A DNA stretch of 64,000 bases. Source: Eledone cirrhosa (lineage: Eukaryota). A program made the position numbers and the translations under genes. How positions within the stretch are numbered: position 1 is the first letter of the stretch; the number at the start of each line of letters is the position of its first letter. The stretch is from assembly GCA_964016885.1 (NCBI GenBank), contig OZ024742.1, positions 66,712,001 through 66,776,000 on the forward strand. Direction: 5' to 3'. Shown here in pieces: positions 3,440-60,937 of the stretch. The notes beneath the pieces were generated by a model. The model did not search any database. It saw only the letters and a list, made by a program, of their open reading frames with translations, and had not been told where the DNA came from.

Positions 3440-3648
3440 GAAGGAAATGTGGTAAGGAACCAGATGGACCATAACGCACCAAAGTACTCAATACTTAGCG
3501 TAGTAGAGTGGGTAATAGGAACGAGTAGGACTCCGACGGCTGAGCTCAAGCCGTTTCGACGGCTAATTCTGGACTCAGAATTAGCCGTCGAGTCCAGAAT
3601 TAGCCGTCGAAACGGCTTGAGCTCAGCCGTCGGGGTCCTACTCGTTCC

Positions 3649-3651
<3 letters not shown>
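3435..3651 (-). mobile_element. Non-autonomous PLE-like end with half-hammerhead and 62-bp fold-back inverted repeat
   Basis: Arms 3515-3576 and 3590-3651; stem II-GAAA-CGGCT(tgagctc)AGCCG-TC motif; flanked by (TA)n on both sides; homologous to 38144-38340 and 36440-36530. Confidence 0.75.
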
Positions 3652-7097: not shown

Positions 7098-7737
7098 AAT
7101 GTACGTATGTATGTATACGTACATACATATATGTATAAAGAAGTACAGTACTATGTATATATATACATACATGCACACATATGTATATGTACGTATCGGT
7201 TTACTGAACATTTATTATAATGTTCGGTATGTTTTTAAACAAACAGCCCGAATTACGCCGTACAGTGTTTAGCAAACACGTCATCTTTTTGTTCAACATT
7301 GACACAGGAACGATGTACTAGTTTCAAGCTTATTAGCTATCGTCAGCATCGTATACTTTCCTGCCAGATGTTTGAGCGTCTGAAAGTATATACTTTCCTT
7401 ATGCATATTAACGGCTGAGCAGCCTAATTTGCATATCGAGTGAGTTTAGTCGCCCGGGCGCATCGAAAACGATAAATGGAAAAGAATGAAACGAAATTTC
7501 ATTTCTAACTCTGAGTACGGCAGTTACTTAAATGTAAGTATGTATGTATACGTACATACATATATATATATACAGACGTACAATAGTATGTATATATATA
7601 CATACATGCACACATATATATATGTACGTATCGGTTTACCGAACATTTATTATAATGTTCGGTTTGTTTATAGTAATGATATACTGATCTTTCCTGTTTA
7701 TAATTATATATAGTGTATATATAAGTATAAATAATAA

Positions 7738-7812
<75 letters not shown>

Positions 7813-7820
<8 letters not shown>

Positions 7821-10800
7821 GATCGAGTATCGAAAAATCGGCGCACGAGTTCACGAAAAACGAAATTCGATATGAGCGGCAGAGGGCTCAATAATTCAGA
7901 TGAATCAGAGCTATAACTATCGTTAAAATACCGTCACATATAGAACAAGTCTACAATCAACCATACGATTTAAAATCGATAAAGGAAGATTCGGGCCAAA
8001 CAGATAAAAAATATCAATAAAACAATACGTCAATAATTTAAATGAATGTAAAATCATACCCGGACCCACTAGAAAGGTGTTAAATCTAGCTTCATGGGTT
8101 TCTGTAAATCCTTAGACAGTACTCTATCAGCTCACATATAAATATAAAAGCCTACTAGAATAAGTGGAACGGAGTTTACGTTGTCAACGAGTTTTATCCT
8201 GGCGGCAAAGGAGTCAACTAGCGGTGAAAAACGCACATGGCATTAGACAAGGGAGATGACCCCTATATCCGCGAAAATAATTCGAGTGAATGTGGAAATA
8301 CACATATCGAATTAGAGTGCTCAATAGACATGTTAAAATAAAACAAAAGCTATTCATCACTCAATAGAATCGACAAAAAATGAGCAATAAAATTAACTGG
8401 TGGATAGCTATGTCCAGAGCTAAATATATTAGAAAGATCGAGTATCGAAAAATCGGCGCACGAGTTCACGAAAAACGAAATTCGATATGAGCGGCAGAGG
8501 GCTCAATAATTCAGATGAATCAGAGCTATAACTATCGTTAAAATACCGTCACATATAGAACAAGTCTACAATCAACCATACGATTTAAAATCGATAAAGG
8601 AAGATTCGGGCCAAACAGATAAAAAATATCAATAAAACAATACGTCAATAATTTAAATGAATGTAAAATCATACCCGGACCCACTAGAAAGGTGTTAAAT
8701 CTAGCTTCATGGGTTTCTGTAAATCCTTAGACAGTACTCTATCAGCTCACATATAAATATAAAAGCCTACTAGAATAAGTGGAACGGAGTTTACGTTGTC
8801 AACGAGTTTTATCCTGGCGGCAAAGGAGTCAACTAGCGGTGAAAAACGCACATGGCATTAGACAAGGGAGATGACCCCTATATCCGCGAAAATAATTCGA
8901 GTGAATGTGGAAATACACATATCGAATTAGAGTGCTCAATAGACATGTTAAAATAAAACAAAAGCTATTCATCACTCAATAGAATCGACAAAAAATGAGC
9001 AATAAAATTAACTGGTGGATAGCTATGTCCAGAGCTAAATATATTAGAAAGATCGAGTATCGAAAAATCGGCGCACGAGTTCACGAAAAACGAAATTCGA
9101 TATGAGCGGCAGAGGGCTCAATAATTCAGATGAATCAGAGCTATAACTATCGTTAAAATACCGTCACATATAGAACAAGTCTACAATCAACCATACGATT
9201 TAAAATCGATAAAGGAAGATTCGGGCCAAACAGATAAAAAATATCAATAAAACAATACGTCAATAATTTAAATGAATGTAAAATCATACCCGGACCCACT
9301 AGAAAGGTGTTAAATCTAGCTTCATGGGTTTCTGTAAATCCTTAGACAGTACTCTATCAGCTCACATATAAATATAAAAGCCTACTAGAATAAGTGGAAC
9401 GGAGTTTACGTTGTCAACGAGTTTTATCCTGGCGGCAAAGGAGTCAACTAGCGGTGAAAAACGCACATGGCATTAGACAAGGGAGATGACCCCTATATCC
9501 GCGAAAATAATTCGAGTGAATGTGGAAATACACATATCGAATTAGAGTGCTCAATAGACATGTTAAAATAAAACAAAAGCTATTCATCACTCAATAGAAT
9601 CGACAAAAAATGAGCAATAAAATTAACTGGTGGATAGCTATGTCCAGAGCTAAATATATTAGAAAGATCGAGTATCGAAAAATCGGCGCACGAGTTCACG
9701 AAAAACGAAATTCGATATGAGCGGCAGAGGGCTCAATAATTCAGATGAATCAGAGCTATAACTATCGTTAAAATACCGTCACATATAGAACAAGTCTACA
9801 ATCAACCATACGATTTAAAATCGATAAAGGAAGATTCGGGCCAAACAGATAAAAAATATCAATAAAACAATACGTCAATAATTTAAATGAATGTAAAATC
9901 ATACCCGGACCCACTAGAAAGGTGTTAAATCTAGCTTCATGGGTTTCTGTAAATCCTTAGACAGTACTCTATCAGCTCACATATAAATATAAAAGCCTAC
10001 TAGAATAAGTGGAACGGAGTTTACGTTGTCAACGAGTTTTATCCTGGCGGCAAAGGAGTCAACTAGCGGTGAAAAACGCACATGGCATTAGACAAGGGAG
10101 ATGACCCCTATATCCGCGAAAATAATTCGAGTGAATGTGGAAATACACATATCGAATTAGAGTGCTCAATAGACATGTTAAAATAAAACAAAAACTATTC
10201 ATCACTCAATAGAATCGACAAAAAATGAGCAATAAAATTAACTGGTGGATAGCTATGTCCAGAGCTAAATATATTAGAAAGATCGAGTATCGAAAAATCG
10301 GCGCACGAGTTCACGAAAAACGAAATTCGATATGAGCGGCAGAGGGCTCAATAATTCAGATGAATCAGAGCTATAACTATCGTTAAAATACCGTCACATA
10401 TAGAACAAGTCTACAATCAACCATACGATTTAAAATCGATAAAGGAAGATTCGGGCCAAACAGATAAAAAATATCAATAAAACAATACGTCAATAATTTA
10501 AATGAATGTAAAATCATACCCGGACCCACTAGAAAGGTGTTAAATCTAGCTTCATGGGTTTCTGTAAATCCTTAGACAGTACTCTATCAGCTCACATATA
10601 AATATAAAAGCCTACTAGAATAAGTGGAACGGAGTTTACGTTGTCAACGAGTTTTATCCTGGCGGCAAAGGAGTCAACTAGCGGTGAAAAACGCACATGG
10701 CATTAGACAAGGGAGATGACCCCTATATCCGCGAAAATAATTCGAGTGAATGTGGAAATACACATATCGAATTAGAGTGCTCAATAGACATGTTAAAATA

Positions 10801-13732
10801 AAACAAAAGCTATTCATCACTCAATAGAATCGACAAAAAATGAGCAATAAAATTAACTGGTGGATAGCTATGTCCAGAGCTAAATATATTAGAAAGATCG
10901 AGTATCGAAAAATCGGCGCACGAGTTCACGAAAAACGAAATTCGATATGAGCGGCAGAGGGCTCAATAATTCAGATGAATCAGAGCTATAACTATCGTTA
11001 AAATACCGTCACATATAGAACAAGTCTACAATCAACCATACGATTTAAAATCGATAAAGGAAGATTCGGGCCAAACAGATAAAAAATATCAATAAAACAA
11101 TACGTCAATAATTTAAATGAATGTAAAATCATACCCGGACCCACTAGAAAGGTGTTAAATCTAGCTTCATGGGTTTCTGTAAATCCTTAGACAGTACTCT
11201 ATCAGCTCACATATAAATATAAAAGCCTACTAGAATAAGTGGAACGGAGTTTACGTTGTCAACGAGTTTTATCCTGGCGGCAAAGGAGTCAACTAGCGGT
11301 GAAAAACGCACATGGCATTAGACAAGGGAGATGACCCCTATATCCGCGAAAATAATTCGAGTGAATGTGGAAATACACATATCGAATTAGAGTGCTCAAT
11401 AGACATGTTAAAATAAAACAAAAGCTATTCATCACTCAATAGAATCGACAAAAAATGAGCAATAAAATTAACTGGTGGATAGCTATGTCCAGAGCTAAAT
11501 ATATTAGAAAGATCGAGTATCGAAAAATCGGCGCACGAGTTCACGAAAAACGAAATTCGATATGAGCGGCAGAGGGCTCAATAATTCAGATGAATCAGAG
11601 CTATAACTATCGTTAAAATACCGTCACATATAGAACAAGTCTACAATCAACCATACGATTTAAAATCGATAAAGGAAGATTCGGGCCAAACAGATAAAAA
11701 ATATCAATAAAACAATACGTCAATAATTTAAATGAATGTAAAATCATACCCGGACCCACTAGAAAGGTGTTAAATCTAGCTTCATGGGTTTCTGTAAATC
11801 CTTAGACAGTACTCTATCAGCTCACATATAAATATAAAAGCCTACTAGAATAAGTGGAACGGAGTTTACGTTGTCAACGAGTTTTATCCTGGCGGCAAAG
11901 GAGTCAACTAGCGGTGAAAAACGCACATGGCATTAGACAAGGGAGATGACCCCTATATCCGCGAAAATAATTCGAGTGAATGTGGAAATACACATATCGA
12001 ATTAGAGTGCTCAATAGACATGTTAAAATAAAACAAAAGCTATTCATCACTCAATAGAATCGACAAAAAATGAGCAATAAAATTAACTGGTGGATAGCTA
12101 TGTCCAGAGCTAAATATATTAGAAAGATCGAGTATCGAAAAATCGGCGCACGAGTTCACGAAAAACGAAATTCGATATGAGCGGCAGAGGGCTCAATAAT
12201 TCAGATGAATCAGAGCTATAACTATCGTTAAAATACCGTCACATATAGAACAAGTCTACAATCAACCATACGATTTAAAATCGATAAAGGAAGATTCGGG
12301 CCAAACAGATAAAAAATATCAATAAAACAATACGTCAATAATTTAAATGAATGTAAAATCATACCCGGACCCACTAGAAAGGTGTTAAATCTAGCTTCAT
12401 GGGTTTCTGTAAATCCTTAGACAGTACTCTATCAGCTCACATATAAATATAAAAGCCTACTAGAATAAGTGGAACGGAGTTTACGTTGTCAACGAGTTTT
12501 ATCCTGGCGGCAAAGGAGTCAACTAGCGGTGAAAAACGCACATGGCATTAGACAAGGGAGATGACCCCTATATCCGCGAAAATAATTCGAGTGAATGTGG
12601 AAATACACATATCGAATTAGAGTGCTCAATAGACATGTTAAAATAAAACAAAAGCTATTCATCACTCAATAGAATCGACAAAAAATGAGCAATAAAATTA
12701 ACTGGTGGATAGCTATGTCCAGAGCTAAATATATTAGAAAGATCGAGTATCGAAAAATCGGCGCACGAGTTCACGAAAAACGAAATTCGATATGAGCGGC
12801 AGAGGGCTCAATAATTCAGATGAATCAGAGCTATAACTATCGTTAAAATACCGTCACATATAGAACAAGTCTACAATCAACCATACGATTTAAAATCGAT
12901 AAAGGAAGATTCGGGCCAAACAGATAAAAAATATCAATAAAACAATACGTCAATAATTTAAATGAATGTAAAATCATACCCGGACCCACTAGAAAGGTGT
13001 TAAATCTAGCTTCATGGGTTTCTGTAAATCCTTAGACAGTACTCTATCAGCTCACATATAAATATAAAAGCCTACTAGAATAAGTGGAACGGAGTTTACG
13101 TTGTCAACGAGTTTTATCCTGGCGGCAAAGGAGTCAACTAGCGGTGAAAAACGCACATGGCATTAGACAAGGGAGATGACCCCTATATCCGCGAAAATAA
13201 TTCGAGTGAATGTGGAAATACACATATCGAATTAGAGTGCTCAATAGACATGTTAAAATAAAACAAAAGCTATTCATCACTCAATAGAATCGACAAAAAA
13301 TGAGCAATAAAATTAACTGGTGGAAAGCTATGTCCAGAGCTAAATATATTAGAAAGATCGAGTATCGAAAAATCGGCGCACGAGTTCACGAAAAACGAAA
13401 TTCGATATGAGCGGCAGAGGGCTCAATAATTCAGATGAATCAGAGCTATAACTATCGTTAAAATACCGTCACATATAGAACAAGTCTACAATCAACCATA
13501 CGATTTAAAATCGATAAAGGAAGATTCGGGCCAAACAGATAAAAAATATCAATAAAACAATACGTCAATAATTTAAATGAATGTAAAATCATACCCGGAC
13601 CCACTAGAAAGGTGTTAAATCTAGCTTCATGGGTTTCTGTAAATCCTTAGACAGTACTCTATCAGCTCACATATAAATATAAAAGCCTACTAGAATAAGT
13701 GGAACGGAGTTTACGTTGTCAACGAGTTTTAT
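7813..13732. repeat. Tandem array of a 615-bp non-coding unit, 9 full copies plus about 0.6
   Basis: TAGAAAGATCGAGTATCG recurs at 7815, 8430, 9045, 9660, 10275, 10890, 11505, 12120, 12735 and 13350; only two substitutions noticed (10194, 13325); no ORF in the track. Confidence 0.98.
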
Positions 13733-13825
13733 TGTTGTAATAATATTGCCAGAATTAATAACAGAAAACCAACCAAACAGTGAGTGTGTTCTGTTATTAA
13801 TTCTGGCAATATTATTACAACAATA
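13730..13825. repeat. Perfect 37-bp inverted repeat terminating the 615-bp array
   Basis: 13730-13766 versus 13789-13825, followed by a short tail and (TA)n. Confidence 0.9.
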
Positions 13826-13842
13826 TGACCCTCCCCAAGTAT

Positions 13843-13954
<112 letters not shown>

Positions 13955-14661
13955 ATATTATTATTTATACTTATATATACACTATATATAATTATAAACA
14001 GGAAAAGTCAGTAATTCATTACTACCTTATTAACGTAAGAAAAATAGCTCAATGTAAATACATCAGGTGTGTTTCAGAGCTGGAATACCAATGTATTGGA
14101 AAAGAATGGAAAAGAATACATTAATAATAATACTCTCAATACATTTGAACATTACAGGAACAATTATCACACTACATCCACCATAAACTTCATAGAAACT
14201 ACTTTTAATACACAAACATCTTTGTCTGCTTAATATGTATGTAAACCTGTGTTATATTTTGTGATACCTTTGCCATACTGTAATATATATGCCTAGTACC
14301 ATTGCTTGTTTCCTACCTAGCTATCATATATATTCCCAACACTTTTGCACTCTCTATACTATGTACTGGTAATGTCCTCGTTTAGCGAGTAACTTTCTGC
14401 CTTAATGCCTCTTTAATTGTTATACTATTATTTTGTAATCTCTGTCACATACACTGACACTGACCTCAGCATCTCCACTCTGCAAATATGAAACTGTTGG
14501 TGACAACCTTAATATCTATGTACCTATATGTTTGTTCTGTCGAATAGCAAGTTAATTATATGTTTAAACTTTGCTAGTGCTCCGATGAATCCAAACTTTC
14601 GTTTAAAAGAAACCATTGTCCTCAATATAATGTTTTGAAGATAGTTTTGATTATTGTGTAA

Positions 14662-16160: not shown

Positions 16161-16357
16161 GTTATTCCGGGTTGAATCGGAGGTAACCACAGTAAGTAAG
16201 GTACTCAATACATAGCAGAGTATAACAGTTTTAATATAGATGAGATTCTACAGGACTAGAACTGTTTCATTCATTTGAAATCATCAGGAATCTCTGATTC
16301 CTGATGATTTCAAATGAATGAAACAGTTCTAGTCCTGTAGAATCTCATCTATATTAA

Positions 16358-16361
<4 letters not shown>
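16157..16361 (-). mobile_element. PLE-like end with a 66-bp palindrome carrying a complete HHR on each strand
   Basis: Arms about 16227-16292 and 16296-16361; GATTC-CTGATGA-TTTCAAATGAAT-GAAA-CAG(ttctagtc)CTG-TA-GAATC; flanked by (TA)n. Confidence 0.85.
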
Positions 16362-16551: not shown

Positions 16552-16647
16552 TAATTAGAGAGTGCGAATATCACTGCATAACTAGGAAATCTGCACCTGC
16601 AGGTGCAGATTTCCTAGTTATGCAGTGATTTTCTCACTCTCTAATTA
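16552..16647. repeat. Near-perfect palindrome of about 95 bp with no spacer
   Basis: ATCACTGCATAACTAGGAAATCTGCACCTG/CAGGTGCAGATTTCCTAGTTATGCAGTGAT, centred at 16599/16600. Confidence 0.9.
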
Positions 16648-18444: not shown

Positions 18445-19713
18445 CATCTACTACCGCTTGACCGTCGTACCTTGTCCAGCCAAACCGCTCGCCAAAATGG
18501 AGCGCCACTCTTCTAATTCCTTTGGAAGATGCGGGCTCCTATGGGGAGAATATCCATCTGCTGCCAACGCCCTTCCAACGGAGGGCTGGGGATGCCGTGG
18601 CTGATGATGCGCAAACACGCGCTCAGGCGTCGGCATCTCTACGTATTCCTCACCGGACAATCGGTGTGAGCCCCGTTCGTGAGGCGAGCCTTCCACGACT
18701 CGTCTCGCTGACCGAGCTGCAGTCCTGGGTCAAGAAAAGACCGAGGAAAATGGGCGACTGGCACATCGAATGTGCTCAGGCGCTCACAGCCATCTGACTG
18801 GCGGACCCGGCGATCAGTGGAGACGTCACTTCGTCATTCTATAGAGGGTTGATCCGCAGCAAGTGCGACGACGTGTTCGGTGAAACTCTAGGCGTAGAGG
18901 AAGACGAACTGGCCAGTCTGTTCAGTAGGACCTTCCGCCCGGGACCGATGGACAACTTTTAAAAGTCCCTGGCCTGGCAGTGCTACCGAGGAGCTCTACC
19001 AGTTCGAGACAAGCTCTACAGACATGGGCGCTCGGGAAGGGACGCTGCAAAAAAGATCTGTCCAAGGTGCGTGCGAGACGAAGAAACCGTCGCGCACGCA
19101 TTCATACACTGCCCGGGCGTCACTGACTTGTGGTGCTATGTAGAACGACTATTGTCGTGGATTGGACCAGTCCGGTTGACCACCGAGCCAATTGTCATGA
19201 TCAAACCGCCACCCTCCTTCAAAAACGAAGGAGAGGCGGTTTTCCTTTGTGTGATAGCTATGGCGAAAGAGGTTGTATGGTGGATAAGGTTGAAAGGGCT
19301 GAGGTCAGACACCTTTCTCTCCGGCCAACAACTGATTCTTTTTTTCAAATACCACTTTGGAAGAAGAATCAGGATTGAGAGAGAGGTGCTGTACCCCAGC
19401 AAGTTTTATGAAAGTTGTGTGAAAGTGGCGAGAATGGCCCGAGTGAATGGGCCTTCTCTCTATATCAGCCTGTAGTTTGAGGAAAAGGAGGAGGAGAGGA
19501 AAGGAGTACAAACTCTTCGTACTCCTGGAGATGAGGGTTGTACATTTTTTCGGGGGTATGTGTTACCCATATGAACTGTCTCCCCCATATTGGGGAAAAT
19601 CGACTAATTTTTAAATTGCTTTTGTGATAATATTTTACACGTTTTTATTGTATGTAAACTTCCCCCTTTGTATTTGTACCCTTCTTTTGTGCTCCTGTGG
19701 CTAATAAAGAAAC
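18445..19713 (+). mobile_element. 5'-truncated Tx1-clade LINE (ORF2 C-terminus plus 3' UTR)
   Basis: IYYRLTVVPCP, CPRC..HAFIHC zinc finger, AATAAA then (TATC)n; TCTATCTATC at the 5' junction. Confidence 0.9.
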
Positions 19714-19714
19714 G

Positions 19715-19750
<36 letters not shown>

Positions 19751-19965
19751 CCTGGGATGGACACACGCGTATAACTTGCTGAGTAAGTTCTGTTTAAATT
19801 TCTATAGAAATTCTTGTCTGTAAACTTTAATTTTTGTACCATTTTGTAGAGGGACTGCCAGGTCAAACTTTGATCTGGTCAGTCTCTCAAAATATTCTAC
19901 GCCTTTAGGCGAAATAGTTAAACAAAAAAAGTTTTTTTCTTGTTGAAAAGTTAAGATTTTTTTAA

Positions 19966-21752
19966 ATGGCTGAAGCTCTTCACCAAAATTCGAAGGAGGA
20001 AAGGGGAAGATAAACTTACAGCTTCCTCCTGCCACTGTCACAGTAGCAGAGGTCAAAAACAAAGGTCAGCCAGAGGAAGGATTTACTCCACCTGCTGACC
20101 GGCAACGTGACGTTGCCATGGCAACAAACCAAAGAACCAGCGACACCAGCAACAACAACAACAACAATGCGACGGACGAAAACAACACCAATAACAAAAA
20201 CAACAACAACAAGACCAATAACTGTGATAACAACAACAACGATAGCAACAACACCACCAACTACAACATCAACACAAGCAGGGAAAGGGTCCCCTTTGCC
20301 CAGACGGCAAGACAAACCCTCGACTATCTGCCAGTAGATATAACCAAAGCGAAGGAGCTATTGGCATATGCCAAAAAATATATAGTGTACGGGGACAATG
20401 GTTCATTCAAGATCCATTCCCCCCCGGAACTAAAAAGCCAGAGACTCCTAAACACTGTCATGTTTAGGACAATCTCAAATAAAAGCAAAAAACCAGCTCA
20501 CCATCACAGAGTGAGATAGAGCTGGTTTTAAAAGACGTCATGAAGGACATCACCTTCATTCAGAAGGATAGACTCTACGGGAGTCTATCCATTCTCATGA
20601 AGGACAGGGACACAGCAGTGAAACTGTCCATCAAACCAATCATATCCACCGCATACACCTTCTACTCTACGTACATGGGTAGAACACAAAAAATAAAAAT
20701 CCACACCATCCTGCCGATTATGGACATATGGTGGGTTTTGACAGGTTTCCTGAACCTGGATGATGACACGCTGGTGTCCATGGGAAAGGCATCGGGTGAC
20801 GCGTTCAGTGGAACGAGTCTCGAACTTGTAGTTCAAATGAGGCCCGAAAGGATCGCCCAGATCCCTGAACGCGTCATACTGGATGATCAAACTTTCATCA
20901 ACATTACCGTTGAGCGTAGGCGGCCCTCGTGTTACCTCTGCGGAACCAGAGGTCACCTGAGGGCTGTCTGTCTCCAACTTAATAAGAAAACCCCAATCCT
21001 GCCTACACCACCAACAACTGCACAACCAACACAATCACCACAACTACCACTACAAAAACAACAACCACAGCTCAAACCAAAACAAAACAATGTCCAACCC
21101 ATCCTCCGCACTAAAAAAAAAAAACATTTCCAAAACACCCGCACCGCAAACACAACCCGAAAATATACCCCTCCCCTCCAACGTGGAAGATGACCCTAGT
21201 TCGTCGACAGACGAGGAGGAGCACTTCCACACAATCAAAAGAAAAAAAAAAGAAAACACACCTCAGACACACAAATGAAAACAACCCCTCCCCAAAACAT
21301 AACACTGACACCAACACAAAAGAGCTCACAACAACAGCAAACAAAAAACACCACACAAAAACAAAAACATGCATACACATACATAAACACAAGAAACAAA
21401 AAACTGTTAAACATTGTGTACAACAACAATGTAATAAAAACCCAAGGGCCGAACTTCACCGAGGCAGGGGATTCCCCCCCCCCTCAAAATGATTAAGGCC
21501 CCACAGGATACTTATAAAACTTTAAAAAACTACTTTAAAGAGGATGTGGGTCCCCCCTGCGTCGGGCCCATTAACGGCGTCCTTCTAAAAAACTACCCCA
21601 CCCCCTCCCCAAACACCCACACAACTCCAAACGCCCCAACCACACAACACACTGATGCCCCTACACTTCCACAAACCACCACCCCACCCAACAACCCCTC
21701 CCCCACCCTAATAGAAATTGTGCAGCCCGATACCCGGGACGCAGAGAGGTAA
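19966..21752 (+). pseudogene. LINE ORF1 (gag-like, CCHC knuckle), frameshifted
   Basis: CYLCGTRGHLRAVC knuckle in ORF 20540-21193; low-complexity N/T/P segments; ATG at 19966. Confidence 0.8.
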
Positions 21753-21782
21753 GTGCCTTTTCTCTTCACCACCAACAAGGCT

Positions 21783-24700
21783 ATGCTAAGAGTAGGCTGT
21801 TTAAATGCGCGTGGCCTGGGCTCAACTTGGAAGCAAGCAATGCTTCTAAATGACCTCAGGTCACAACGTATAGATGTGATGGTTATTTGCGAGGCCCGGA
21901 TCAGCAACGTGCGACAGCTGGCCCCCACCTTTGATGACTTTGAGATGCACGCATCTCTCTGTCAGCCCGGAGGTGGGGGTGGGGTTGTCGTTCTGCTGCA
22001 AAAAACATCTGGGTCCCGCAACACAGATGGTACATTTGGACCCGGGGGGTCGACTAGTGGTTCGGGACCTTGGCAGTGGTGAAGGCGGAGCGTTTAGGTT
22101 GGTAGCCGCCTACGGCCCTTTCGGGTCAATGCGGCCGGACTTCTTCCATCGTCTGGAGACTTTTCTAGGGACGTCCCGCTCCTTACTATAAGTGGGGGCC
22201 TGGAATGGTATCCTAGATGCACGCTGGGACTACGTAGGGGCCTGTCCCGATAGAGAGGAGTGTAATAGCCTCAAAGGGTTAATCGGTCGATTTGATCTGG
22301 CCGATAGATATCGACTAGATTTTCCGACTGCGCCAACCTGGACTTGGCCAAATCGTAACGGATCATCTAGGTCGTACCTAGATAGGTTCTTAGTTAGTAT
22401 TAAGGATAAGGACATTTTAAGTTGTCCAAAAATGCGCATGGTTGGCTATTCAGACCACAATTTAGTGACCTGCATGGTCAACTTTGACAGAACTCATAGA
22501 CAGGGATCCGGTTACTGGAAGCTCAACTTGTCCTTACCGGCAAGTAAGGCTTACAGGGACCGGATTAGCAATTTAGTTAAGGAACAGTTGACGGGCGCCA
22601 TCGTCAACAGCATGTGGTGGGGATCTCTCAAAAGAGAGATTAGAGAAGTCTCTATAGAATTTAGTAAGGAGTTAGCCTCACATAGAAATAGGAAGGAAAG
22701 GGAGTTGGTAGATAGTGTAGAAGAGGCAATTAGAATCGGCGACGTGGCCAGAGTGCTACGGCCCTGGGTCATTTCTTCGACGCGAAACACGAAGTCTGCA
22801 TCGTCCGAAGCAAAATACGTGCTCTGGGAAACAAGGGGACCAAAGCTGTTACCTGGGCCCGCGTGACAGAAGCCAAAAGGGGGAGCAGATCCACTATCCG
22901 GTCTTTGCGAGACCAGGATGGACGGGTGATCCTTGAACCTAAGCAGATGTGCGAGGCTTTTCAAAAGCACTTTGCCGGATTGTTCGGAAGGGGCGGGAAG
23001 CCGGTTGGGGATGTGGACTTCGGTCCATACCTCGACGGCCTGCAGCGTCTCTCGGACAGGGAGGCGAAGTCCTGCGAGGAGCCGATTTCAGCCGCTGAGA
23101 TAGAGGACGTGCTGAGCCAATGCGGCAAACGCAAATCCCCGGGTCTCGATGGTCTTCCATACGAACAATATCTAGCTACGCCGGACGCCGGACTTGTTCC
23201 CCGATCTCCTCGAGGTGGTCTACTGCAACTGGCAACAGAATGGGAGAATTCCCTGTGCTGTGACCAAGGGCGTAGTCACGCTAGTGAGGAAGGACCAGAA
23301 CAAGGGGGAAGATATAAATAATTTCAGGCCCATAACTCTGCTAAATACAGAGTTACAGATTTTGAGCAAGGTGCTAGCAAAGAGGTTGGCGCTTGTCGTG
23401 GCAACCTGGTGGGAGATGCGCAGACATGTGCTATCCCGTCCAGGTCCATCCACGACAACCTCCACCTCATGCGATACATCATAGAGAGGGTTGGGAACGA
23501 ACCCAGCTTTGGTGGGGCCCTGATCAACTTGGATCAATCTATGGCATTCGATAGGGTCGACCATGGTTACCTGGATGCGGTGTTAGCGGCGGCAGGCTTC
23601 GGACCCGTTTTCAGGGGCTGGATCAATGCCATGCACAGCAGCCGCATCTGCTCTATGGTCAAGGTGAACGGCTACCTCTCGGAGCCGTTCGAAATCGCGC
23701 GGTCCATCCGACAGGGGTGCCCTCTCTCCTCCCTTCTGTATGTAATGACTCTAGAGCCACTGCTGAGGAAGTTGGAGTTGTTGCAGGGCATCCCGTTGGA
23801 ACCGGGATTGCGGAAAGAGGTGTCGGCCTACGCCGACGACGTAACAGTAATGGTGTCTACGGCCTCGGAAATCGGGGCGATCGGCCCCTTACTGGAGGAG
23901 TACGAAAAGTTTACAGGGGCTAAGCTGAACCGGGACAAGTCGATCGGTCTGCAACTCGGCACGTGGAGGGGCAGATTGATGCCCTCCGATACGTCGTCGG
24001 GCGCTGGACAGAGGGCCCGGTGAAGTTGCTCGGGGTCTGGTTCGGACCAGACCTCCAGGTGGAGAAGAACTGGGGTGAGGTAACGAACAGGGTGTTTGCA
24101 CTGACCCATAAGTGGGCCGAGTGCAAACTGTCCCTGAAAGGTCGGGCGGAGGTGGTGAACACTTATATAGCGTCCGTCATCTACTACCGCCTGACCGTTG
24201 TGCCTTGCCCAAGGGAAACGCTCGCCAAAATGGAGCGCACACTCTTCCAATTCCTTTGGAAGAAGCGGGCTCCTATGGTGAGGAGATCCATCTGCTGTCA
24301 ACACCCTTCGAAAGGAGGGCTGGGGATGCCGTTGCTAATGATACGTAAACACGCATTAAGGCTACGGCACCTCCAGGTATTCCTCTCCGGTCAACCGGTG
24401 TGGGCCCCGTTTGTGAGGCGAGCCTTTCCCAGACTCGTCTCACTCACCGAGCTGCAATCCTGGGTCAAGCAAAGACCGACAAAACTGGGCGCCTGGCACA
24501 CGGAGTGTGCCCAGGCGCTCACGGCTCTCTAGCAGGTGGACCGGCCTGTCAGTGGAGAATCCACCTCGTCATTCTATAGAGGGCTGGTGGTTAGCAGGTG
24601 CGACGACGTCCTCGGAGAAGCCCTAGTCATGGAGGAAGACGAACTGGCCAACCTGTTCGGTAGGACATTCAGCCCGGGACCCATGGATAACTTCCAGAGG

Positions 24701-25209
24701 TCCCTGGCCTGGCAGTGCTACAGAAGGGCTCTGCCCGTTCGAGAAAGGCTCTACAGACACGGGCGTCCGGGTAGGGACCCCTCGAAAAAGATCTGTCCCA
24801 GATGCGTGTGCGACGAGAAAACCGTTGCACACGCATTGGTACACTGCTCGGGCATTGCTGATCTGTGGGGCTATGTCGAACAACTGCTGTCAAGGCTGGG
24901 ACCGATCCGGTTGACCACCGAGTCTATTGTAACGATCAAGCCGCCTCCCCTCTTCAAAAACGAAAGAGAGGCGGTGTTCTGTGCGTAATAGCCATGGCGA
25001 AAAAGGTTGTATGGTGGACGCGTCTGAAAGGACTGAGGTCAGACACCTTTCTCTCTGGCCAACAACTGGTCCGTTTCTTCCGATATCATTTCGGAAGAAG
25101 GATCAGGAGGGAGAGAGAGGTGCTGCACCCCAGCCGTTTTTATGAAATATGGGTGAAAGTGGAGAGAATGGCCCGTGTAAATGGGCCTTCACTCTACATC
25201 AGACTATAG
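21783..25209 (+). pseudogene. LINE ORF2: APE endonuclease, reverse transcriptase and C-terminal zinc finger, frameshifted
   Basis: LNARGL, SYLDRF, SDHN (APE); KSPGLDG, NFRPITLLN, AFDRVDH, QGCPLS, YADD (RT); GGLG; CPRC..HALVHC. Confidence 0.93.
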
Positions 25210-26614
25210 GTGAGGAAGATGAAAGACCAAGGGAGCACCCCTTCTCTGTGCTCCTGAGGAAAAGGGTTGCACACTTTTTTTCGGTGTGTGCGACCCTCCA
25301 ATGCGCCTCCTCTCTCTTGAGGATTTTGTTATAAATTTTATTCTGTTATATTTTATTTTATTTTTATATTTTGTTATTGCCTCCTCCTTATTGAGGACGC
25401 CTTGTTTCATAAACTACCCCCATTGTACTTGTCCCACTTTTGATGCCCTGGTGGCAAATAAAAGAAACATATCTATCTATCTATCTATATATCTATGATC
25501 CTATTTTCTTTAAAAATTTAAATGTAAATTTTTTTAAATGATCTTCCTTCTTAATTTTTAAATATTTCTACTATTTTTACCTTTTGACATTAATTTTTTA
25601 ATTTTGTTAATATATATTTTTCATATATTTTTTAATTATTTTCCTAAGGATACCCCTCTGAATATATTTTTTTTAGATGTAGATTGATAATCTTTTATTG
25701 ACATTCTGAAAATGTATCCTCTTTACGATAGTTCTTCGAATTGCACATTACGTTTTTCCTCTCCTTTTGATCTTCAAACTTTCACATATCTTTTGACTAA
25801 AATAATTAATCTCACACGAAATAATATATCATTTTCTCAATATATTTTCTGAGTAAATCATTCATCAAATTTAACGGTTAACAAACAAGTTTGGAGTTAT
25901 CTTTCCATTTTCAATCGTGCAAACATAAACATTATATTATAATATAATATGTACGATATTACTATATAACTTCGCTAAAATAACAATATTCTGAAAACAT
26001 TTTCAATGTTGGAACAAAATATTCAAATCTACAAATTGTTCTCCTCTTACAAATTGAACCAACTGTTTTTTATGTAAAATGCAAAATCAACTTCCTTCGT
26101 AACTCATATTAGAAATGTAAACAACTAATAATTGTAAATTATTTCTATTTCTATAATACTTATACATGCACAATTATTAATCTATATAGATATTTATATA
26201 CTTATAACCTAATGTAATAAGATAAAATATACTTACAACCATAAATCTTCACATAATATAATTGATTATATATACAATATTATAACTCATAATATAGCTA
26301 AATAAATTTAAATTCTGGAATCATATTCCACCATTCCCCAAAATTGTTAATTCCTTTTAAATTAACGTAAATACAAGCGTTTCTTTCTTTTTGCTTCTTC
26401 CTACTCATGCATACATATATCCTAATTATTTAAATTCTGCATAGCGTCTAAGATAACGTTTTTCCAGCCCTATACCTCAACCTCATTTGCATACTCATCT
26501 TAATAATTTGAAATATCTGACTTTTCTTCTCTTATTCCTTCACTATCCAAAGAAAACTTGAACAATTAAGGTATCTTTTCTTGGTTATGTCAAAATTTAT
26601 GAAACAAACTTTGT

Positions 26615-59857: not shown

Positions 59858-60101
59858 GTAAAGTTATATTTAAAATTGTTGGGTTACAACTAGTAAATAT
59901 TTATAACTGATATAAAAGCACTCGACAAATATTTGGAGTATATTTACAATATTAAATAAATGGAAAACTATATTTATAAAACCATATCTATTTCATTATA
60001 TATATTTCGGGGATATCATATTAACAATATGTTATATATCCCCGAAATATATATAATGAAATAGATATGGTTTTATAAATATAGTTTTCCATTTATTTAA
60101 T

Positions 60102-60107
<6 letters not shown>
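59858..60107 (-). mobile_element. PLE-like end with half-hammerhead fold-back (26615 family)
   Basis: Inverted repeat 59945-60107 centred on GGGGATAT..ATATCCCC stem, followed by GAAA-TATATA-TA; tail homologous to 26675-26800. Confidence 0.8.
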
Positions 60108-60136
<29 letters not shown>

Positions 60137-60139
<3 letters not shown>

Positions 60140-60860
60140 TATAAATTAGCGAGAACCGAATTTCAGCTGAGGAATTAACGAAAAACACTTCCGAGTTGTG
60201 TGGCAAGCGCTCGATAATTCATATGAATCAGAGCTACAACATAACGTTAAAGGCCAAATACACTGAGATGGTGGTTAAACTAATCATCCGCACAGCGAAA
60301 AAACGATCAAGTAATTCGGGTCAAGCAGATATAAAAATATAAAAATATAAAAATATATAAAAATATATATGGTTGAAAATTTACCCGGACCCCTGGAGAG
60401 ATGGTAAAATCCAGTATTTGGGTTTCTGCGGCTCCATAAGTCATTTACTGTCCGCTTACATAAAGGATGTTAGGCTTCTGGCAATATGACCGAACAAGGA
60501 AGACGCGTTATCAACGGGATTTAGCTCAATAGTATACATAAGTTTGTCTGTTACTGACCCCACGTGGAGTTCAGCAAGGGAGGCAACACTTATATTAGGC
60601 GAATGAATTCAGTTGTGTAAAATACTGCGAAAATGCAAAATATCACAAATCGAATAAAGCTCTCGACAGAGTGGTTAAATATAACAAAGCTATTCAACAG
60701 TCAATAGAATAAACCAAAAAAAAATCGATAAAATTAACTGGCCAATAGCTGGACTCTGGAGATTAATACAAGTATAAATTAGCGAGAATCGAATTTCAAC
60801 TCAGGAATTAACGAAAAACACTTCCGAGTTGTGTGGCAAGCGCTCGATAATTCATATGAA
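60137..60860. repeat. Diverged 633-bp relative of the 615-bp unit, 1.14 copies
   Basis: Shared ordered blocks ACGAAAAAC, ATAATTCAnATGAATCAGAGCTA, TTCGGG, ACCCGGACCC, GGGTTTCTG, CGTTnTCAACG, CAAGGGAG, AAGCTATTCA, TCAATAGAAT, ATAAAATTAACTGG; unit restarts at 60770. Confidence 0.85.
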
Positions 60861-60937
60861 CCATTCAATGGCTATCATCGAAATATATATAGCAGTAAAT
60901 AAAGGATTATGAGTTCATGCAATTGACTTATGTTTCG

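Follow-up and report, generated by a model that had tools for sequence, protein, structure and literature searches.

Here we describe a tandem repeat in the genome of Eledone cirrhosa that behaves like, and on sequence grounds most likely is, an animal retrozyme of the kind that lacks long terminal repeats (LTRs). The repeat forms an array of 615-bp units at positions 7815–13732 of the window, by which we mean the whole stretch of 64,000 nucleotides analysed (assembly GCA_964016885.1, contig OZ024742.1, positions 66,712,001 to 66,776,000, forward strand). About 750 young insertions, this array among them, belong to a family that is larger and older, and the minus strand of every unit carries a variant of the type I hammerhead ribozyme motif. 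We give a probability of roughly two in three to the reading that the repeat is a retrozyme whose multimers likely arise when the enzyme of a Penelope-like element (PLE) recopies self-cut, circularised RNA into (TA)n.

The original prediction, made from the letters of the window alone, had described about 9.6 almost identical units beginning directly after (TA)n, and both points hold. The array comprises nine full units and a further 383 bp, with unit starts at 7815, 8430 and so on to 13350 (period 615), and the full units differ by two substitutions in total. It is non-coding: a search for stop-free frames of at least 150 amino acids found none in the array, and the unit lacks the open reading frame (ORF) with reverse transcriptase (RT) and GIY-YIG domains that marks an autonomous PLE. 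It is also dispersed and mobile, as expected of a retrozyme. Arrays almost identical to this one recur on many contigs of the 3.0-Gb genome, and genome-wide counts of exact patterns give the young subfamily 751 (TA)n-to-unit junctions and 1,426 internal junctions. The array and its target are laid out as follows.
7705–7814, no strand: (TA)n target microsatellite left of the array, the presumed RT primer; its junction with the unit recurs exactly 751 times genome-wide.
7815–13732, minus strand as probable RNA sense: tandem array, defined by unit periodicity, with the strand taken from the helix and hammerhead data.
60138–60863, minus strand: copy of an older subfamily, one 633-bp unit plus 93 bp, with the same hammerhead variant at about 60383–60519.

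The last of these is the distant 633-bp homolog that had been claimed to lie in phase and to be partly tandem, as it indeed does: its full unit (60138–60770) is 70% identical to the array unit over 596 aligned columns, and the 93-bp partial repeat follows. A motif common to the young subfamily and its relatives matched 5,212 times against none in the control, and a second, independent family motif 870 times. When 189 sampled units were reduced to 85 representatives at 97% identity, these formed a ladder of subfamilies descending to about 50–60% identity with the window unit. Units across the family span 540–630 bp. Older subfamilies mostly occur as one or two units, whereas young arrays reach 16–19 units.

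The putative ribozyme is read from the minus strand. Its parts in unit 1, and a segment that could pair with it, are these.
8058–8192, minus strand: type I hammerhead variant, repeated every 615 bp in 10 complete copies, the last at 13593–13727.
8192–8188 with 8062–8058, minus strand: stem I.
8187–8181, minus strand: core U3 U4 G5 A6 C7 A8 A9 (UUGACAA).
8180, 8179–8104 and 8103, minus strand: extra C, stem II (76 nt) and extra A.
8102–8099, minus strand: GAAA.
8099–8096 with 8067–8064, minus strand: stem III (ACCC/GGGU), with a hairpin extension.
8065–8063, minus strand: GUC, with the predicted cut between 8063 and 8062.
7992–7996, minus strand: conserved segment, complementary to the 3′ strand of stem I (94 of 100 cells Watson-Crick).

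The motif has the type I core (YUGANRA, GAAA and NUH, with positions 3 and 8 paired), surrounded by three helices with G10.1–C11.1 and A15.1–U16.1. It is peculiar in its U3-A8 core pair, in the single additional nucleotides that flank stem II on either side and in a stem III that is both stable and extended. Retrozymes carry the motif in at least two consecutive units, and here ten complete motifs stand in a row. A descriptor derived from the very sequences it was scored on matched 64 of 85 minus strands, none of the 85 plus strands and 1 of 850 shuffles, which reverses the strand sense that the original prediction had assigned to the RNA. Among the 64 matches, A9 is invariant (64/64), G10.1–C11.1 is kept in 62 and GUC in 63, and positions 3 and 8 pair in 62 (UA 57, UG 5), while N7, between fixed neighbours, is unconstrained (G 33, C 17, U 11, A 3). 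A pattern for the variant gave 2,778 matches against none in the control, even when the young subfamily was excluded. Across 21 diverse copies, 93.9% of hammerhead cells pair, compared with 24–55% when partners are slid, and the G-U pairs fall on the minus strand. None of 38 distinct substitutions fixed within arrays touches the 16 invariant core positions; positions 7 and 8 and the extra nucleotide vary. Taken alone, the region is predicted to fold into a three-way junction (z only −1.1).

The statement that the unit has no canonical hammerhead was literally true, although it passed over the variant on the other strand. Rfam returned no credible match for the unit at E-values up to 10, a multi-locus scan was dominated, among the 150 of 388 matches listed, by microsatellite microRNA matches, and inspection found CUGANGA-GAAA on neither strand. 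The accompanying suggestion of a different, new self-processing fold is not borne out, since this fold is a hammerhead variant with precedent: published PLE hammerheads include the U3-A8 swap and an additional nucleotide following A9 (PMC4209133). The architecture of the repeat's hammerhead is new; the ribozyme class itself is not.

Other self-processing candidates were set aside. The long hairpin contains a CUGAUGA that lacks both conservation and a GAAA partner. Visual inspection led us to reject hairpin, twister, back-splicing and IRE1-type sites. Hepatitis delta virus (HDV)-like ribozymes have a 7-bp P1, a 3-bp P3, an L3 consensus and a catalytic C in J4/2, an arrangement that inspection of the alignment did not reveal and for which Rfam gave no credible match. 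Within the family, C3 faces A8 in the subfamily of L102 and L136, leaving a core position unpaired, and this may be a weaker ribozyme. An extra C in two distant subfamilies (8176–8188 and about 60505–60515) creates a small hairpin over the hammerhead core, through convergence or recombination.

Evidence from other helices also points to the minus strand as the RNA. Two hairpins adjoin the start sites discussed below.
7886–7911, minus strand: conserved covarying hairpin (7886–7889 with 7908–7911; 7892–7897 with 7902–7907), adjoining start site 2.
8348–8409, minus strand: long conserved hairpin, adjoining start site 1.

A tree-aware covariation scan of 20 subfamily consensus rows yielded one outstanding helix, 7892–7897 with 7902–7907, for which the tree implies six double changes, where 50 randomisations gave at most 2–3. 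This is the ATTCA/TGAAT hairpin of the original prediction, which is thus real and the best covarying helix. It is intact only when read as the minus strand, where its G-U pairs lie, and the folding z-score of the minus strand is lower than that of the plus in 9 of 11 units; the earlier claim that G-U pairs favour the plus strand is therefore not supported. Raw A.C versus G.T counts (98 versus 56) are about what base composition predicts and decide nothing on strand. Other proposed stems fared variously. The change from CTAGA/TCTAG to CTGGA/TCCAG is genuine and belongs to the extension of hammerhead stem III. That from TGAGC/GCTCA to CGAGT/GCTCG was out of register, as TGAGC aligns with TGTGT and the conserved partner of GCTC is the GAGC at 7908–7911. 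The CGTT-nnn-AACG hairpin is kept in the young subfamily and in part of the homolog's subfamily but nowhere else, and overlaps the hammerhead core. For the TGTG/CACA segment, the consensus fold favours a long-range partner.

The ends of the insertions indicate how the repeat enters the genome. Two start sites lie within the unit.
8424–8436, plus strand: priming site 1 (13 nt) as it recurs inside the array; a young PLE family has the same sequence, in the same register, at its junction.
7920–7932, plus strand: second fixed start site (the ‘tail’ boundary), 105 bp inside site 1, where the second arm begins in 3/3 inverted insertions.

Among insertions sampled as best matches, 33 of 34 begin at the identical base after TA-rich DNA, which, with the 751 junctions, bears out the expectation that homologs share a fixed end at (TA)n. 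At 29 distinct loci of the older homolog, starts likewise fall within 8 bases of one another. Across copies and subfamilies, start positions vary by up to about 15 nt, using microhomology. Far ends are scattered, and 42 of 70 pass into TA repeats in a set that excludes stretches cut inside an array or ending in unavailable letters. In all three inverted insertions seen, one arm starts at site 1 and the other at site 2 (7920), and both arms are multimeric. Two inverted PLE insertions in the genome whose ends were examined show the same two-site asymmetry. A fixed microsatellite 3′ end, truncation at the other end, an inverted copy and a two-site tail are the marks of Penelope-like insertion: PLEs leave partial tandems, an inverted truncated copy, a tail and a microsatellite bias (PMC8557442), and their RT starts at two internal sites that delimit the tail (PMC11167929). 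Because the repeat matches this pattern, we infer that its fixed end is the priming end, that the plus strand is the first complementary DNA (cDNA) strand and that the family RNA is the minus strand.

The arrays themselves point to repeated copying of one monomer. In 51 multi-unit stretches containing 252 units (a set without three stretches that overlap, a chimeric array and an array on an error-rich contig), 22 stretches have no internal difference, 23 haplotypes occur and the mean difference between stretches is 6.4 bases per unit. Arrays of 15–18 units without polymorphism were seen, and variants private to one sampled array are fixed across all of its 5–15 units; variants that differ within an array show no recurring order between arrays. 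Arrays also continue seamlessly over the predicted cut site. A cleaved linear monomer would halt RT after about 250 nt, so the template is either a circle or uncleaved RNA recopied through strand transfer. Private within-array changes on the plus strand comprise 12 A>G and no T>C (p about 0.004, post hoc and from small numbers), an excess that fits misinsertion of deoxyguanosine opposite template U. In two arrays, a single substitution recurs in non-adjacent units (L270 units 5, 9, 10, 12 and 13; L059 units 1, 4 and 6), as might happen if a single damaged base in the template was misread again and again, or through gene conversion.

The likeliest helper for insertion is P0001, a young PLE of the Neptune/Nematis type with RT and GIY-YIG domains and an intact-looking ORF, present in at least 30 near-full copies at 98–99%. 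At the start of its insertions stand the 13 nt that open those of the young subfamily, in an identical register. Three of these 13 positions are different in the repeat's older relatives, and all three changes in the young lineage are towards the PLE. In its terminal repeat, a hammerhead lies upstream of two start sites, in the order found in the repeat, and U3-A8 hammerheads occur in the terminal repeats of P0001 and two other PLE families of the genome. GIY-YIG candidates number 10,596 in the genome (150 scored), and a TA run lies downstream of the endonuclease domain in 27 of 30 examined. In one PLE family, with terminal repeats at L166, L177 and L179, GCAA replaces the GAAA of the U3-A8 hammerhead. 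The PLE terminal repeats at L165, L177 and L181 hold boxes that we take to be E2F-like and CCAAT-like.

Under the retrozyme reading, arrays would be transcribed as multimeric minus-strand RNA, from which hammerhead cleavage after GUC would release monomers. These may then be ligated into circles, by an RtcB-type enzyme if the analogy with PMC7229834 applies. The GIY-YIG domain of the helper would nick (TA)n, an ATATAT segment located some 250 nt downstream from the cut would serve for priming, RT would pass repeatedly over a single RNA circle, and the far end would be joined through short AT microhomology. Rolling-circle reverse transcription of retrozyme circles by PLEs has been proposed before (PMC4209133 and PMC7229834). 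The original prediction had offered rolling-circle reverse transcription of a circular RNA as one of two routes, and we hold it the most likely one, given the single haplotype per array and the PLE-like marks. Its broader claim, that a mobile structured element was inserted as ready-made head-to-tail multimers with a fixed (TA)n end rather than spreading as an ordinary satellite, agrees with what we find. As a tentative extension, doubtful in its entirety, we speculate that the element is a protein-free, long-lived RNA circle whose hammerhead, able to act in the monomer, silences itself after circularisation, and that its youngest lineage came to match the priming site of the currently active PLE exactly, through three successive changes, then burst into arrays of up to about 19 units, each recording repeated RT passes over a single RNA molecule and their errors.

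Several observations weigh against this account. The descriptor was built on the sequences that it then scored, and the 21-copy pairing test used an alignment cut to the motif, with a shuffle control (a) that treats copies as unrelated. For pairs with double change in the hammerhead, significance was reached by some measures and not by others (61/500 and 155/500 on two). Only certain copies of the motif fold well in isolation, and in full-unit context stem I is predicted to be unformed (0.00–0.02 in 9/9 natural dimers), so cutting would need kinetic or protein help. No tertiary contact between stems I and II was identified, though no search was made for one. Far ends coincide with the predicted cut site in 1 of 70 cases, and by pattern in 2 versus 0, an enrichment that is not significant. 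The 13-nt match with P0001 was noticed post hoc and has 7–8 informative bases. Because 2 of 3,570 TA-adjacent terminus pairs match as well, over 8 bases, besides one same-family pair at 11, the match is suggestive rather than proof. A family profile (nhmmer) found no homology to the terminal repeats of 58 GIY-YIG loci of the 10,596 candidates, and no strand asymmetry of the adenosine-to-inosine kind was found in family-wide tree substitutions. Finally, one PLE inserts in vitro without needing hammerhead cleavage (PMC11167929). In the full RNA, pairing of 7992–7996 is predicted to block the ribozyme. A co-transcriptional switch of stem I, which fell from 0.7 to 0.02 in one context, failed in others and is not claimed.

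Some of these points would suit a non-autonomous element mobilised by PLEs with no circle at all, its RT starting internally on linear multimeric or redundant RNA and recopying by strand transfer, with a hammerhead that is weak or acts at another step. The Poseidon PLE initiates internally on unprocessed RNA, independently of hammerhead activity (PMC11167929), stem I is predicted to be blocked in context, and ends do not accumulate at the cut site. We nevertheless regard this as unlikely. Array-private variants fixed over 5–15 units demand a bottleneck of one unit at each jump, which simple copying from a long linear donor would not provide, and a catalytic core strictly kept across subfamilies only 50–60% alike argues for function. 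A one-haplotype array would equally be expected if insertions of one unit or slightly more were later amplified in place by unequal exchange, as in a satellite. Some older arrays are indeed long, heterogeneous or built with higher-order periods (C1 near 150.1 Mb; C1 near 81.7 Mb), a few variants are common to neighbouring units, and in-place amplification is possible for some old arrays. As a general explanation it is improbable: the longest young arrays are non-polymorphic and of the youngest haplotypes, while older subfamilies mostly have 1–2 units, both arms of inverted insertions are multimeric and private changes are strand-biased.

It is more improbable still that the repeat is a viroid-like RNA replicating from RNA to RNA and merely captured by PLE enzymes, an idea encouraged by the highly structured 600-nt unit, by the subfamily ladder and by one public run whose head-to-tail monomer contig is deeper than the host short interspersed element (SINE). 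The plus strand has no ribozyme match in 85 units, tandem DNA also assembles as a circular contig, and matches filed under 14 organism labels resemble traces of host nucleic acid, for which reason we do not use them as evidence. Horizontal transfer to these organisms was rejected, as the runs also carry several subfamilies or the host SINE, and raw DNA reads under one label contain neither unit nor SINE. Of the public runs with family matches, none is on record as RNA, and one guessed to be RNA holds only a 144-nt piece at depth 2.2. In the run with the monomer contig (X2, of unknown kind), depth is 12.8 against 3.5 for the SINE, which is far more abundant in the host, the reverse of another run; this ratio is a weak hint of enrichment as RNA or a small circle.

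The other route of the original prediction, rolling-circle DNA replication, is the least probable of all in the form of a Helitron-like transposon with a single-stranded DNA intermediate. Such elements could account for a fixed 5′ end, a 3′ end that varies, tandem multimers and AT targets, but they are defined by a nucleotide-precise conserved 5′ end and a conserved 3′ end. Here, starts shift by up to about 15 nt at microhomology-primed junctions, far ends scatter, the two-site inverted arms match the genome's own PLE insertions and the conserved ribozyme lies on the strand that would be the RT template.

Several neighbouring features of the window bear on the limits of the array.
13730–13847, minus strand: terminus of an unrelated TA-primed repeat, with its fold-back hairpin; a short AT microhomology links it to the end of the array.
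13935–14024, minus strand: inverted copy (92%) of the left flank 7671–7760, beyond the right (TA)n.

The hairpin at the array end was originally taken as the element's own, yet 13730–13825 is the fold-back of the different repeat, which has a copy elsewhere in the genome at 100% identity over 85 bp. Another repeat of like architecture lies at 30243–30968, with (TA)n, 2.2 units of 291 bp and then an inverted arm. Near-perfect fold-back hairpins occur at 59978–60105 (before the homolog), 3515–3651, 16227–16361, 16552–16647 and 38144–38262; some adjoin (TA)n, and the hairpins may be PLE-type insertion scars. Degenerate copies of long interspersed elements (LINEs; RVT_1, zf-RVT, endonuclease) lie at 18445–25496, 45742–48740 and 32551–33900, and their ORFs were rejected as relatives of the unit, to which they have no homology.

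With animal non-LTR retrozymes of coral, mussel and axolotl (PMC7229834; bioRxiv 10.64898/2026.07.22.740005), the repeat shares low-GC, non-coding tandem units that each hold a single type I hammerhead; its multimers are likewise dispersed and occur together with PLEs, and the proposed life cycle also runs through a circle and RT. Its units of 540–630 bp compare with 170–400 nt in PMC7229834 and 51–972 bp in the bioRxiv report. Unlike those retrozymes, it has a U3-A8 core, extra nucleotides flanking stem II, a stem II of 76 nt and a stable 4-bp stem III with a long extension, where theirs is palindromic and of 1–2 bp. The predicted block of the ribozyme in the circle is described in PMC7229834 for plant retrozymes and viroids, not for most animal ones. 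PLE hammerheads in the pseudo-LTRs of Cercyon in Schistosoma mansoni are U3-A8 as well, but minimal, mostly single and thought to act as dimers (PMC4209133), whereas the present motif has much longer stems II and III and forms part of a tandem unit complete in itself. Poseidon of Anolis (PMC11167929) and Neptune/Naiad (PMC8557442) resemble the repeat in targeting AT-rich or (TA)n DNA, in leaving partial tandems and an inverted, truncated copy, and in having a tail between two RT starts with a hammerhead upstream; the present repeat has no ORF, and a tail of 105 bp against 30–40 bp. Beyond the 13-nt junction, it has no sequence homology to the PLE terminal repeats sampled in this genome. We found no description of the family in the literature, a search that did not extend to Repbase or Dfam.

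Abundant retrozymes can thus evade Rfam and canonical descriptors when their core is U3-A8 and their stems are long. In the family described here, the template is young, the candidate helper has an ORF that looks intact, and two start sites as well as a cut site are predicted, which makes the proposal that PLEs copy retrozyme circles directly testable.

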